From the IMG/VR virus record IMGVR_UViG_2563366908_000002: a stretch of DNA of 10,721 nt. One strand, 5' to 3'. This document shows, piece by piece, positions 5,816-10,721 of this stretch (within the stretch, counting starts at the first letter, position 1; each line of letters opens with the position of its first letter). The translations under genes and the position numbers were made by a program. Source of the stretch: a virus (lineage: Duplodnaviria > Heunggongvirae > Uroviricota > Caudoviricetes). Below the pieces are notes generated by a model that worked only from the letters and a program-made list of their open reading frames with translations, was not told the origin of the DNA and did not search any database.

Positions 5816-5920
5816 ACCATAACGTCCGGCTTCTCTCACTCCTGAGCCGGACTGCATTGGTTTAATAAAAACCATCAACAATTGTGATTTAGATATTCGG
5901 AACCATTCAAATATAACAAA

Positions 5921-5940
5921 ACCCCGTAAAAACGAGGTTT
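5921..5940 (-). terminator. weak terminator-like hairpin downstream of the GnsB-like gene
   Basis: Minus strand cctcg-ttttta-cgggg (one G-U wobble) followed by TTTTGTT. Confidence 0.3.
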
Positions 5941-5966
5941 ATGGATAAATTTTATTATTGAATACA

Positions 5967-6140
5967 TCAGATTAAATTAATCTTGACATCATAGCTTTCA
6001 AGACCCGTCATTTTTTCCCGTGCGGTAAACTGAATACTGGTAACTTCTTTCCCGGTCTTTTTCTTAAGTTCAATAATTTTTTTTGTTATATATTCAGAAA
6101 TATCTGCTTCTGCTTTTGTTTTTAAGTTTTCAATATTCAT
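5967..6140 (-). CDS. gnsB: GnsA/GnsB-family protein (57 aa), not in the ORF track
   Basis: Hand translation gives MNIENLKTKAEADISEYITKKIIELKKKTGKEVTSIQFTAREKMTGLESYDVKINLI, very close to E. coli GnsA/GnsB as recalled (MNIEELKKQAE...FTAREKMTGLESYDVKIKIM). AGAGGAA precedes the start; an extra in-frame ATG lies 3 nt upstream at 6143. Confidence 0.75.
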   Translation of the reverse strand: MNIENLKTKAEADISEYITKKIIELKKKTGKEVTSIQFTAREKMTGLESYDVKINLI

Positions 6141-6311
6141 CATTTCCTCTTTTAGTCTGTTATGACTTTCCAGTTACACAGTAAGTCGATTATATGGTGC
6201 AAACGTGTAAAAGATAAGATGAAACATCGCAATAATCAACATACGATAGTCTAAATTTTACACAAACAGACAAAGAGAATTTTCCTGAATTATCAATACA
6301 ATAGCATCAAA

Positions 6312-6542
6312 TCAACTCAAGAGCCTTATTGCTGCTTCCAGAATTTCTTCTGAAGTAACATGTCGATCCGCGGCTACATAAATGACTTTATGATCTCCGG
6401 TCAGAGATGGAAACCCTGCGGCCATTACAGTAAGGTGTGTTTTTTCGCCATTTGGATATTCACGCATGATGGTGTTAACTCCAGTCATCGCTGGCACTAC
6501 CACTGCTGGTTCAGAGTTAAAAAAAACTATGATTTTTTTCAT
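6312..6542 (-). CDS. small protein (76 aa), possibly YmcE/YnfN-family cold-shock-associated partner of Gns
   Basis: Track ORF 6312..6584; the 6584 start would overlap a terminator T-tract, so the ATG at 6542 (MKKIIVFFNSEP...) is preferred. Sits directly upstream of the gnsB-like gene, like ymcE-gnsA and ynfN-gnsB in K-12. Family assignment is from memory. Confidence 0.5.
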   Translation of the reverse strand: MKKIIVFFNSEPAVVVPAMTGVNTIMREYPNGEKTHLTVMAAGFPSLTGDHKVIYVAADRHVTSEEILEAAIRLLS

Positions 6543-6590
6543 GATGTTACCGTAGTATGTGAGTATCCATCGAATAGATACCAAGCAAAA

Positions 6591-6609
6591 AAGCTCCCGA
6601 AGGAGCCTT
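6591..6609 (-). terminator. Rho-independent terminator-like hairpin, possibly bidirectional
   Basis: gctcc-cgaa-ggagc stem-loop; on the minus strand it is followed immediately by TTTTTTGC. About 200 nt downstream of the cspI stop. Confidence 0.5.
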
Positions 6610-6813
6610 CATTTTCACTTTTTTAAATCCAACGACAGACGGCTGGCATTTAAGTATTGTGAAATATTATCAAATGTAATCATCATTGATTTACAAAAGA
6701 TACATTTTGCCCCGAAAGGATTCATGTCAGAAACATCAAAAGATGATGTTCTATACTGGGAACCATGACAACACGGGCATCTAAAGTGAATATGGTTTGT
6801 AATATTGTCTACC

Positions 6814-7026
6814 TCAAAGCGCCACTACATGAACAGCGGCAGGACCTTTAGGTCCGTTCTCAATACCAAATTCAACTTCCTGATTCTCAGTTAATGTTTT
6901 GAAATCGTTGCTCTGAATTGCTGAGAAATGGACAAACACATCTTTGCTGCCATCTTTCGGCGTGATGAAACCAAAACCTTTTTCAGGGTTAAACCATTTC
7001 ACTAAACCAGTCATTTTGTTAGACAT
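6814..7026 (-). CDS. cspI: cold-shock protein CspI (CspA family)
   Basis: 70 aa beginning [38 protein letters not shown] with RNP1/RNP2 motifs; matches E. coli CspI as recalled. AAGG ribosome-binding site upstream of the ATG. Confidence 0.93.
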
Positions 7027-7176
7027 AATTATTACCTTTTGAAGAAATTAGCCCTTGGGCAGAATGGTCCGAAAAAAAATATCAGAGAGAAAAACCAACA
7101 AGGAAATCTCAAGAGGTACAAATAATAAAATTATAACAATGACTGCTTCAGATAAATTTGTAACAAACCAGAACAC

Positions 7177-8729: not shown

Positions 8730-8945
8730 TTACTCTCCTCTCGCAGCCTTACGCCTGTCTTCTTTAATCTTGAAATAAAGATTTGTCAGATACGTCAGCA
8801 GGCCAAAAACCAGGCTACCCAGCACACCGATTGCAGCCCACTGTGACGGAGTTACTTTATCGAGTAACTGCAATGCCCAGAAACCAGCATTACCCGCCGA
8901 TGTGCCATAGGCAACACCTGTTGTTAACTTATCCATTGATTTCAT
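8730..8945 (-). CDS. essQ: class II pinholin (phage 21 S21 / EssQ family) with dual-start motif
   Basis: 71 aa: [71 protein letters not shown]. Two transmembrane segments and a Met1-Lys-Ser-Met4 dual start. GAGGAT precedes the ATG at 8945. The track's extension to 9020 is discounted. Confidence 0.88.
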
Positions 8946-9164
8946 ATCCTCACCCCGATGTACACGGATGGTGCAATATGTTTGAAAAGATCGGAGTCTA
9001 CGGGGTAGTTTTGACAGCACACGTTGTTCTCAACGGCGCTAAAAAAACATACACATTAAAAATGTGGGTAATTATTTTGAAAGAAAGTCATATATAAAAT
9101 AATAATACGAGAAATGTTTTCATATTTAGTGTACTGTATACGGCCATTTATACAGGAAAAGCCT

Positions 9165-9335
9165 ATGTCAGAACGTAAAAACTCAAAATCACGCCGTAAT
9201 TATCTCGTTAAATGTTCCTGCCCAAACTGCACCCAAGAGTCAGAACACAGTTTTTCAAGAGTACAAAAAGGTGCCCTTTTGATCTGCCCTCATTGCAACA
9301 AAGTATTCCAGACAAATCTTAAAGCTGTAGCCTGA
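9165..9335 (+). CDS. small basic zinc-ribbon-like protein (56 aa), possibly YnfU-like
   Basis: MSERKNSKSRRNYLVKCSCPNCTQESEHSFSRVQKGALLICPHCNKVFQTNLKAVA with CxCxxC ... CxxC. AGGAAAAG precedes the ATG at 9165 and a terminator follows. Opposite strand to the lysis genes. The YnfU assignment is a memory-based guess. Confidence 0.55.
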   Translation: MSERKNSKSRRNYLVKCSCPNCTQESEHSFSRVQKGALLICPHCNKVFQTNLKAVA

Positions 9336-9401
9336 TTGATTTTATTAGTAACAAGTATTTTTTATATTTTAATAATATATTTAAAGCAGATAAATAAATA
9401 T

Positions 9402-9425
9402 CCTCCGGCATAGCCGGAGGTTTTT
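9402..9425 (+). terminator. Rho-independent terminator downstream of the zinc-ribbon gene
   Basis: cctccggc-ata-gccggagg (8-bp GC-rich stem) followed by TTTTT on the plus strand. Confidence 0.65.
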
Positions 9426-9501
9426 CAAATGCGCCTATAAGGCTCTCTTACCAGCCGCGCCCTAACAGGCGCACACGATCTGACATTTGCATCCAACTTC
9501 G

Positions 9502-9960
9502 TTACTTACGGCCCGTAAACGGGCTGCCCGGATAGGGAATCGATAACTGCTCTCCCATTTTATCCTCTTCAAGCTGGTGCTTTATGTAATCCTGTATCTT
9601 CGCCGTGTTCTTACCCACTGTATCGACGTAGTACCCTCTGCACCAGAACTCCCTGTTCCTGTATTTGAATTTCAAATCACCAAACTGCTCGTAAAGCATC
9701 AGACTGCTTTTCCCTTTCAGATATCCCATAAACCCGGATACGCTCATTTTAGGCGGGATCTCCACAAGCATATGGATATGATCTGCACAGCATTCAGCTT
9801 CCAGAATCCGTACGCTTTTCCACTCACACAGCTTTCTCAAAATACTGCCTATTGCTCTACGCTTCTCTCTGTAGAACACCTGTCTTCGGTATTTTGGCGC
9901 AAAAACTATGTGATATTTACAGTTCCATCGGGTGTGCGCTAAGCTCTTTTCGTTCCCCAT
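9502..9960 (-). CDS. tnpA: IS200 transposase TnpA (Y1 HUH transposase)
   Basis: MGNEKSLAHTRWNCKYHIVFAPKYRR ... HIHMLVEIPPKMSVSGFMGYLKGKSS ... YYVDTVGKNTAKIQDYIKHQLEEDK; near-identical to Salmonella/E. coli IS200 TnpA as recalled. GGGGG precedes the ATG at 9960. The track ORF extends 17 codons further upstream. Confidence 0.95.
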   Translation of the reverse strand: MGNEKSLAHTRWNCKYHIVFAPKYRRQVFYREKRRAIGSILRKLCEWKSVRILEAECCADHIHMLVEIPPKMSVSGFMGYLKGKSSLMLYEQFGDLKFKYRNREFWCRGYYVDTVGKNTAKIQDYIKHQLEEDKMGEQLSIPYPGSPFTGRK

Positions 9961-10070
9961 TGGGACCCCCTTTTGATTTCTTGTTTGACACTTGCAGTTG
10001 CCAGACCGCAAGGTGTTTTAACAAATCAAAAGGGGTTTTAATAACTGGCTCAAAGCTGAAAGCTTTCCGG

Positions 10071-10093
10071 AACCCCCAGCCTAGCTGGGGGTT
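10071..10093. repeat. perfect palindrome in the IS200 left end
   Basis: aacccccagc-cta-gctgggggtt, a 10-bp perfect stem. Candidate subterminal hairpin of the kind IS200/IS605 transposases recognise on single-stranded DNA. Confidence 0.6.
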
Positions 10094-10106
10094 TTCTGTG
10101 CACAAT

Positions 10107-10130
10107 AAAAAACCCGCCTGAGCGGGTTTG
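10107..10130 (-). terminator. IS200 left-end terminator hairpin facing incoming minus-strand transcription
   Basis: Minus strand caaacccgc-tcag-gcgggttt followed by TTTTTT. Matches the known IS200 feature that blocks read-in transcription of tnpA. Confidence 0.7.
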
Positions 10131-10410
10131 AGATTGTGGTGCTTTTTGTGGGAGTCATCCACTTACGCACTTTGTTTTGCCATGCCAGCAGTTAGCTTCT
10201 GCTGTAAAACTATTCATGCAGCAAACCTGCACTTCACCACAATGGTTAGCATACTTTTCCTGATTAAGATTTTGCCAAATATGCTAGCCATTGTTTCATG
10301 TATTGGACCTCCTTACTTTTTATTAAAGAGATCCAATATTCACTACTCTGTCCGTATCTCTACTCAGGCATCAGCCTTCTTCGTTATCGTATACAGACGA
10401 GCGATGAATT

Positions 10411-10626
10411 TTAATCAGTAATGATGACATTTGCTGCTGCAGGACCTTTAGCACCACTCTCTATAGAGAAGGTAACCTTTTGACCTTCAAATAAGGTTCG
10501 ATAATTATCATTCTGAATCGCAGAAAAATGCACAAACACATCTTTACTACCATCAACAGGAGAAATAAAGCCGAAACCTTTATCAGCGTTAAACCATTTT
10601 ACTAAACCAGTCATTTTATTTGACAT
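10411..10626 (-). CDS. cspB: cold-shock protein CspB (CspA family)
   Basis: 71 aa: [71 protein letters not shown]; matches E. coli CspB as recalled. The 5' leader runs off the window end. Confidence 0.93.
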
Positions 10627-10721
10627 TCGGTGATGCTGCCAACTTACTGATTTAGTGTATGATGGTGTTTTTGAGGTGCTCCAGTGGCTTCTGTTTCTAT
10701 CAGCTGTCCCTCCTGTTCAGC

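Follow-up and report, generated by a model that had tools for sequence, protein, structure and literature searches.

The small zinc-ribbon gene ynfU beside the lysis genes of a Qin-type prophage and its linkage to cold-shock-domain genes

Why should a gene for a very small zinc-ribbon protein stand beside the lysis genes of a prophage, on the strand opposite to that of the holin? The question is raised by IMG/VR record IMGVR_UViG_2563366908_000002 (Duplodnaviria; Heunggongvirae; Uroviricota; Caudoviricetes); the whole stretch of 10,721 nucleotides that was analysed, called the window below, is the late region of a Qin-type lambdoid prophage of Escherichia coli. The original prediction, made from the letters of this DNA, offered two possibilities: an independent lysogen-expressed factor, or a gene whose transcription collides with late transcription into the lysis genes and modulates it. 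The flagged open reading frame is ynfU, a catalogued E. coli gene with an experimentally detected product; its identity, translation and zinc-knuckle motif were published in 2019. The new lead is a strong linkage of ynfU to cold-shock-domain genes across multiple genomic contexts. Probably, ynfU is an independently expressed passenger gene of a csp island, encoding a zinc-ribbon protein of stress physiology, and not a lysis-timing device.

Identity, translation and constraint of YnfU

The window copy shows no differences from b4776 of E. coli K-12 MG1655 in either its 171 nt or its 56 amino acids (100% identity), and it occupies the same place, between essQ and cspB of a Qin-type prophage, with the same CPxC...CPxC knuckles. 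Megablast with positions 9000..9450 returned E. coli chromosomes that carry identical DNA, labelled 'ynfU: putative zinc-binding protein YnfU' in RefSeq. The protein, MSERKNSKSRRNYLVKCSCPNCTQESEHSFSRVQKGALLICPHCNKVFQTNLKAVA, matches Pfam PF23499 (YnfU) with 107.3 bits against a cut-off of 27 (E = 3.5e-31, model positions 1-49 of 49 covered) and NCBIfam NF038384 with 79.4 bits against a cut-off of 36 (E = 1.1e-22, model positions 1-51 of 52 covered). It also carries the features that define the family, a CPxC...CPxC pair together with SEHS(F/Y) in a protein of about 55 residues: the knuckles are C19-P-N-C22 and C41-P-H-C44, and the motif is S26-E-H-S-F30. The product is, as had been predicted, a basic 56-residue protein with five cysteines (positions 17, 19, 22, 41 and 44), in which ten lysines and arginines stand against three aspartates and glutamates, and the isoelectric point is 9.6. 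The parts of the gene are the following.

9165..9335, plus strand: ynfU coding sequence, 56 codons plus TGA, encoding a basic C4 zinc-ribbon small protein
9154..9157, plus strand: Shine-Dalgarno sequence AGGA, 7 nt 5' of the ATG at 9165, read from the sequence
9114..9164, plus strand: upstream in-frame extension of a mechanically called 73-residue open reading frame, lying outside the protein

The original prediction had begun the gene at 9114, and this start needs correction. Translation starts at ATG 9165, not at ATG 9114, because the Pfam match begins at residue 18 of the 73-residue version, which is the annotated methionine, because the extension is poorly kept, and because RefSeq and published ribosome profiling both give 56 residues. 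Upstream of ATG 9165, the frame is open in only 39 of 77 loci. An N-terminal extension, whether from a conserved GTG/ATG-TAT-GGT box or from ATG 9114, was rejected on this count and on the start of the Pfam model. The ribosome-binding site that had been proposed for the gene is in place, and CAGGA is conserved, with an invariant G, among 36 sequences from different genera.

Evidence for expression comes from K-12. Ribosome profiling in which initiation complexes were stalled detected YnfU there, a western blot of the protein with a sequential peptide affinity (SPA) tag confirmed it, and the level of YnfU-SPA was the highest among the newly identified small proteins of that screen; the strain carries only a cryptic Qin prophage, and the signal was obtained in ordinary growth with no prophage induction (Weaver et al., bioRxiv 10.1101/511675). 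The same authors pointed out a pair of CPXC zinc knuckles and, by threading, a moderate match to PA0128 (Weaver et al., bioRxiv 10.1101/511675). RiboReport gives full coverage of ynfU in ribosome profiling (Ribo-seq) and translation initiation site (TIS) data, and PIRT-seq, a reporter-transposon screen, recovered the gene independently. Since YnfU is detected in uninduced K-12, its expression is independent of late transcription, and the first of the two predicted possibilities, a lysogen-expressed factor, is supported. Later papers on ynfU either repeat 'possible metal binding' or list the gene in expression or pangenome tables, and no molecular function was found reported in the published literature. 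The original prediction, which gave the function as unknown, thus agrees with that literature, but it had missed that the gene was already named and catalogued.

Conservation and the ratio of non-synonymous to synonymous substitution rates (dN/dS) were computed over 78 species loci. C19, C22, C41 and C44 are invariant, while C17 is kept in 75 of the 78; the motif reads SEHSF in 73 loci and SEHSY in 5, and His28 is invariant. The median dN/dS is about 0.10, with synonymous sites near saturation. The open reading frame is far beyond chance, and the protein is under strong purifying selection. Distant members, from Cronobacter, Hafnia, Erwinia and Mangrovibacter, retain the four ribbon cysteines only, so C17 is a subfamily extra and not a ligand needed family-wide. 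A missing transcript or translation product, together with unconserved cysteines, had been named as grounds for abandoning the original prediction; what is found is published translation and conserved cysteines.

A profile search of 1.84 billion representatives gave 43 at E up to 0.001, most of which are small proteins of about 50-100 residues, and the members with an identifiable source are all from Enterobacterales. A few of the matches are multi-stretch and Cys-rich. Domain fusions were considered as a hint to function and rejected, since the two longer family matches examined (P0050 and P0058) look like read-through gene calls. In one cluster, P0006, which has 190 member sequences (ENA), a tyrosine replaces the zinc ligand C41; this may be a decaying allele in one lineage. 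Enterobacterial ynfU loci were also met on contigs labelled as a Veillonella parvula metagenome-assembled genome (MAG), Vagococcus, Kocuria and a Bacillota MAG (L015, L037, L047 and L049), most likely as a result of contamination or mis-binning in public assemblies. One of them, L015, is a Qin-like prophage whose YnfU is 98% identical.

Genomic neighbourhoods of ynfU

Is a place beside the lysis genes typical of ynfU? A pattern scan with one genome per species gave 80 ynfU loci, practically all of them in Enterobacteriaceae, and the contexts were counted by tblastn of the window's own proteins around these loci. In 58 of the 80 loci, ynfU has a cold-shock-domain (CSD) gene no more than 1 kb away. 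Qin-type lysis genes lie within 5 kb in 10 of these species-representative loci. When the loci are clustered by their outer flanks, 26 distinct contexts can be told apart, with csp adjacency in 20 and lysis genes in 3. The commonest layout, found in 40 loci, is also that of the window: a convergent cspB-like gene follows ynfU at a median gap of about 250 bp. A divergent cspF-like gene is present as well in 25 of these 40 (ynfU -> <- cspB-like, cspF-like ->), and in the remaining csp-bearing loci the csp gene is in tandem with ynfU or upstream of it. The neighbours in the window are listed below.

10411..10626, minus strand: cspB, a cold-shock-domain gene convergent with ynfU and a recurrent neighbour across enterobacteria
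8730..8945, minus strand: holin gene of the essQ/essD type, the first gene of the lysis cassette, divergent from ynfU (from RefSeq annotation of identical DNA and the list of open reading frames)
Whole window, in this order: portal, terminase and nohA; ynfO, ydfO and cspI; rzpQ, rrrQ, ydfR and the holin as lysis cassette; ynfU; IS200; cspB

A 219-bp spacer separates ynfU from the holin, and the two genes are oriented oppositely, as had been read from the sequence at the outset. Strain 7/2, whose ynfU region is a 100% match, has an IS1 between ydfO and gnsB that is absent from the window (window 5816..6813 versus L001 6041..7815), and the distance from ydfO to cspI is 999 bp in the window versus 1776 bp in strain 7/2. 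The window's strain is therefore related to strain 7/2 but distinct from it.

Most ynfU homologs are located outside prophages, in ordinary chromosomal settings. On the core chromosome of Kluyvera, the order is thrS-pheST, YmcF-like <-, ynfU ->, <- CSD, CSD ->, YniD-like, with the genes annotated by Pfam. Klebsiella and Salmonella have a chromosomal ynfU beside a CSD gene, Hafnia has the order ynfU -> DUF2058 -> CSD protein, and in Cronobacter a CSD gene and a YmcF-like gene are found 2 kb from ynfU. The ynfU site of the Enterobacter cloacae complex adjoins PmrD, and other Enterobacter have ynfU without any csp gene. The Kluyvera locus L093 (5403..7595) is a non-prophage island, lying between thrS-pheST and a yniD-like gene and holding a 75-residue open reading frame, a YmcF-like gene, ynfU and two CSD genes. 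The genes of this island are the counterparts of cold-shock morons that are scattered in Qin (ynfQ, ynfU, cspB and cspF among them).

Among phage records, ynfU was found in 8 of 50,697, and related lambdoid phages are without it. Near-identical copies are carried by five Qin-like temperate coliphages (2H10, Tritos, HannyBb, PhiR42_1 and PhiR63_1); in 2H10, the sole one of the five whose annotation was inspected, ynfU stands between cspB and holin S. In the Klebsiella phage ST13-OXA48phi12.4, the gene is divergent from the holin, and the fetched 10-kb stretch holds no csp gene. In phage PHB10, the homolog is found beside csp genes near the integrase, far from the lysis genes.

The interval from Q to S is the classical moron site of lambdoid phages. 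ynfU has the marks of such a gene: its place in 2H10 and Qin is between Q and the holin, it has homologs in the non-prophage chromosome, and related lambdoid phages lack it. A moron should also have a promoter and a terminator of its own. Here, expression in K-12 is published, the promoter is a predicted one, and the native terminator, which is bidirectional, has but a weak T-run in the direction of ynfU. Lambdoid morons of the same interval, such as stx of the Stx phages, resemble ynfU in their position between Q and the holin, in expression signals of their own (candidate ones in the case of ynfU), in lysogen expression (from a cryptic prophage in the case of ynfU) and in having chromosomal counterparts. 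ynfU differs from stx in that it appears to have arrived as a block with two csp genes and in that it is oriented against the late transcript; it is thus without the benefit of Q-dependent read-through.

The conserved unit is the ynfU-cspB-cspF island, and not ynfU plus the holin. Qin-type phages would have acquired all three genes together, as a moron, in the interval from Q to the holin. The antisense orientation of ynfU (and of cspF) relative to the late transcript would then be an accident of insertion.

Transcription signals and the IS200 insertion

How is ynfU transcribed from this position? The gene would have its own sigma-70-type promoter in the 219-bp spacer, for which there are two candidates, and two hairpins lie between its stop codon and cspB, one of them brought in by an insertion sequence of the IS200 type.

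9077..9106, plus strand: candidate promoter P1, TTGAAA at 9077..9082, an 18-nt spacer and AATAAT at 9101..9106, with 10/12 consensus positions
9109..9137, plus strand: candidate promoter P2, GAGAAA, a 17-nt spacer and TACTGT, with 6/12 consensus positions
9394..10103, minus strand: IS200C insertion, its boundaries ambiguous by 2 nt, with tnpA at 9502..9960 on the minus strand (RefSeq IS200C transposase)
9402..9425 (stem-loop 9402..9420), plus strand: right-end hairpin of IS200 followed by TTTTT; 8 bp, 7 of them G-C, -15.5 kcal/mol, z = -5.6
10110..10129, either strand: native bidirectional hairpin AAACCCGC-ctga-GCGGGTTT, between convergent ynfU and cspB, displaced by about 710 bp by IS200

P1 is the promoter that the original prediction had named. 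Its two boxes are present, and it is the best consensus match in the scan, but matches of this type occur at chance level in the AT-rich spacer (3 sites in 900 bp versus 2.0 +/- 1.2 from shuffles), and P1 is not conserved beyond Escherichia: the G of the -35 box has been lost (TTAAAA) from two other loci of Escherichia, L014 and L017, and beyond the genus the region cannot be aligned.

The second candidate comes from an alignment of 36 leaders from different genera, in which G9111, T9132, A9133, G9136, T9137 and C9145 are invariant while the flanks vary. The first five of these positions are spaced as sigma-70 promoter positions -33, -12, -11, -8 and -7. Because this spacing fits sigma-70, and because neither a conserved RNA fold nor a coding extension explains the invariant positions, they are read as P2, a predicted second and family-wide sigma-70 promoter.

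Several other explanations of the leader were considered, and most of them were rejected. RNAalifold on the 36 diverse leaders gave 0 pairs, which speaks against a conserved 5' leader structure or thermosensor. A sigma-32 or sigma-E promoter may lie behind the conserved boxes, although by inspection the alignment shows no consistent -35/-10 pair. At 9134..9155, the E. coli leader has a perfect inverted repeat of 7 nt, CTGTATA...TATACAG, with its 3' arm directly adjoining the Shine-Dalgarno sequence. The corresponding RNA hairpin, CUGUAUA/UAUACAG, does not outscore shuffled sequences (z = -0.97) and is missing from the other genera aligned; read as a LexA box, CTGT-N14-ACAG, the same positions have the wrong spacing and are unconserved (by inspection). 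In the 'essQ < < cspB' spacer of K-12, which was classified before ynfU was annotated, a study by genomic systematic evolution of ligands by exponential enrichment (SELEX) listed peaks of RNA polymerase holoenzyme with RpoH and with RpoE, at a peak resolution and coordinate system too coarse for assignment to a site (PMC5493296). The counterpart of that spacer is 8946..10410 in the window, which here also holds IS200.

Downstream of ynfU, the original prediction had seen a strong terminator. A hairpin with a T-run is indeed there, but it belongs to the inserted IS200. The alignment to K-12 stops at 9398 and picks up at 10104, with about 710 bp between, and an Rfam match to STnc490 (9970..10093, minus strand) lies within the IS200C. 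The point of insertion is 58 nt past the ynfU stop codon, between the convergent ynfU and cspB. This IS200 junction was found in 58 of 5426 complete E. coli genomes (about 1%), and the uninterrupted K-12 junction in 1581. The hairpin at 9402..9420 is inside the element, at its end downstream of tnpA, and matches thousands of IS200 copies. Since it is part of the inserted IS200C, it is not ancestral to ynfU; it is, nonetheless, the likely terminator of ynfU in this strain.

K-12 differs from the window in having no IS200C, so that in the window the element replaces the native hairpin as the first terminator-like structure. The native hairpin lies 63 nt past the ynfU stop in K-12 (L003 5039..5058). 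Its T-run is good on the minus strand, that of cspB and the late transcript, but amounts to only TTT on the plus strand, that of ynfU, with folding energies of -15.3 and -12.8 kcal/mol. Transcription of ynfU would therefore end at the IS200 hairpin here and, in most strains, at the bidirectional hairpin common to ynfU and cspB. For annotation, the 'strong terminator' is an IS200 end, and 9165 is the real start of ynfU.

Possible roles of YnfU

A first AlphaFold2 model of YnfU was poor, with a predicted local distance difference test score (pLDDT) of 58. The second, built on a 38-sequence alignment, has a pLDDT of 73, with 76-85 in the core, and places strands at 14-18, 25-29, 38-40 and 47-49, a short helix at 30-34 and both CPxC knuckles at turns. 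As modelled, the fold is a zinc ribbon, with two knuckles at beta-hairpin turns and a small sheet, and the four invariant cysteines would most likely chelate one zinc ion. A specific structural homolog was sought and rejected on weak E values. Foldseek against the PDB with the first model gave nothing at or below 0.001 (best 0.62, PA0128), and the best PDB sequence-profile match was Tim15, a DNL zinc finger, with E = 0.01 and an alignment over CxxC...S-H...KG...CPHC. Two Pfam models scored below threshold: the PhnA/YjdM zinc ribbon PF08274, with 22.4 bits against a cut-off of 30.8, and the DNL zinc finger PF05180 (Tim15/Hep1), with 13.5 bits against 27 (E = 0.074). The N-terminal ribbon of PhnA/YjdM (PA0128), LysW, the archaeal ribosome-bound zinc finger 9o17_AZ and L44e/eL42, which are the weak best matches in the sequence and fold searches, have in common with YnfU two CxxC knuckles at hairpin turns and a similar size. 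YnfU has in addition a conserved basic N-terminal tail (R4, K5, R11, N12 and K16).

The ribbon and the basic tail would most likely bind RNA, the ribosome or a partner protein, in the stress physiology common to the Csp neighbours. RNA or ribosome binding is favoured, though with low confidence, because the basic tail is conserved, the fold is a ribbon and the neighbourhood is one of csp genes. Tentatively, then, YnfU may be an RNA- or ribosome-binding zinc-ribbon member of enterobacterial cold-shock islands, acting with RNA chaperones of the CspB/CspF type and with YmcF/YnfQ, YnfR and YnfN, and the island may have been captured by Qin-like phages for the benefit of the lysogen at low temperature. 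The Rfam cspA-thermoregulator model (RF01766) matches the window at 6787..7172 and 10383..10721, both on the minus strand and each spanning leader as well as gene, of cspI and of cspB respectively, so that the prophage holds two complete cold-shock expression units. YmcF/YnfQ, YnfR and YnfN are likewise encoded by small open reading frames that group with csp genes, both in Qin and in islands of the chromosome; YnfR is cold-induced, and the Kluyvera locus has a YmcF-like gene divergent from ynfU. They differ from YnfU in that there is no sequence relationship between them and in that ynfU is without a cspA-type leader. No mention of a link between ynfU and cold shock, or of the csp linkage, was found in the published ynfU literature consulted.

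Several points weigh against the overall reading of ynfU given here. No CSD gene lies within 5 kb in 22 of the 80 loci. The Rfam scan placed no cspA-type thermoregulator leader at ynfU, with matches at cspI and cspB only, and cold induction of ynfU was not found reported in the literature on the gene that was consulted. P2 is weak by consensus, at 6/12. Because ynfU is convergent with cspB and not co-transcribed with it, their linkage could come from hitch-hiking within a mobile island of compact size and not from a shared function. Two lambdoid lineages, the Qin-like phages and ST13-OXA48phi12.4, place ynfU divergent from the holin, and a side effect on late transcription in the phage context is possible. 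Lastly, we infer the molecular function of YnfU from fold, charge and neighbourhood only.

On a rival view, the act of transcription would matter and the protein would be secondary, with ynfU transcription meeting the Q-antiterminated late transcription head-on, or supplying an antisense RNA, and so tuning the holin and lysis cassette. In Qin-like phages, ynfU is antisense to the late transcript and directly divergent from the holin, and the homolog in the Klebsiella phage is likewise divergent, with no csp gene in the stretch fetched. Yet 70 of the 80 species loci are without Qin-type lysis genes nearby, the PHB10 copy is far from such genes, and the protein sequence itself is under purifying selection. 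As this selection acts in non-phage contexts, the protein, and not antisense transcription, is probably the functional product. In lysogens, as established for lambda, late transcription terminates soon after pR' when Q is lacking, so ynfU transcription would have nothing to collide with; on induction, the Q-modified polymerase reads through terminators and would probably overwhelm a convergent promoter of modest strength. The second of the two predicted possibilities, that the gene exists to collide with or modulate late transcription, is thus quite improbable. Another role that would serve the phage is anti-defence, superinfection exclusion or late-gene regulation of the Ogr/Delta or Mu Com kind. 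Functional temperate phages do carry the gene in a moron hot spot, and phages P2 and Mu have known zinc-finger regulators of small size. Against this, PADLOC returned 0 families at E up to 1, no PHROG family scored below E = 0.002 and the best ones are all of unknown function, the Com and Ogr/Delta models are absent among the Pfam matches listed at E up to 10, and most family members are found outside prophages. Such a benefit to the phage is very unlikely.

The two remaining alternatives concern the protein. YnfU might bind a partner rather than nucleic acid, as a small regulator or escort, in the way that DNL-type zinc fingers hold Hsp70 soluble; the Tim15 profile match (E = 0.01) and the Pfam zf-DNL match (E = 0.074) point in this direction, and many bacterial small proteins are expected to act via larger ones (Weaver et al., bioRxiv 10.1101/511675). 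We regard this as unlikely, if worth keeping in mind. The five conserved cysteines and the invariant His28 within 56 residues would also suit a metal-homeostasis protein, a zinc or iron buffer or a metallochaperone, and in one preprint ynfU, taken to be iron-related, is among the up-regulated genes along with those of suf and enterobactin. That preprint gives no mechanism, however, no metal-transport or metal-regulator gene is among the conserved neighbours, and the zinc site of a CPxC...CPxC ribbon normally has a structural role (Krishna, Majumdar and Grishin 2003, as cited by Weaver et al.), which makes metal homeostasis a very improbable role.

The reading of ynfU as an independently expressed passenger of a csp island is thus the preferred one. 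As a discovery, the gene is of little weight, since it is already in RefSeq, Pfam and NCBIfam; the lead, nevertheless, concerns an abundant orphan small protein. The linkage of ynfU to csp genes, in 58 of 80 species and 20 contexts, points towards cold and RNA physiology and not towards phage lysis.

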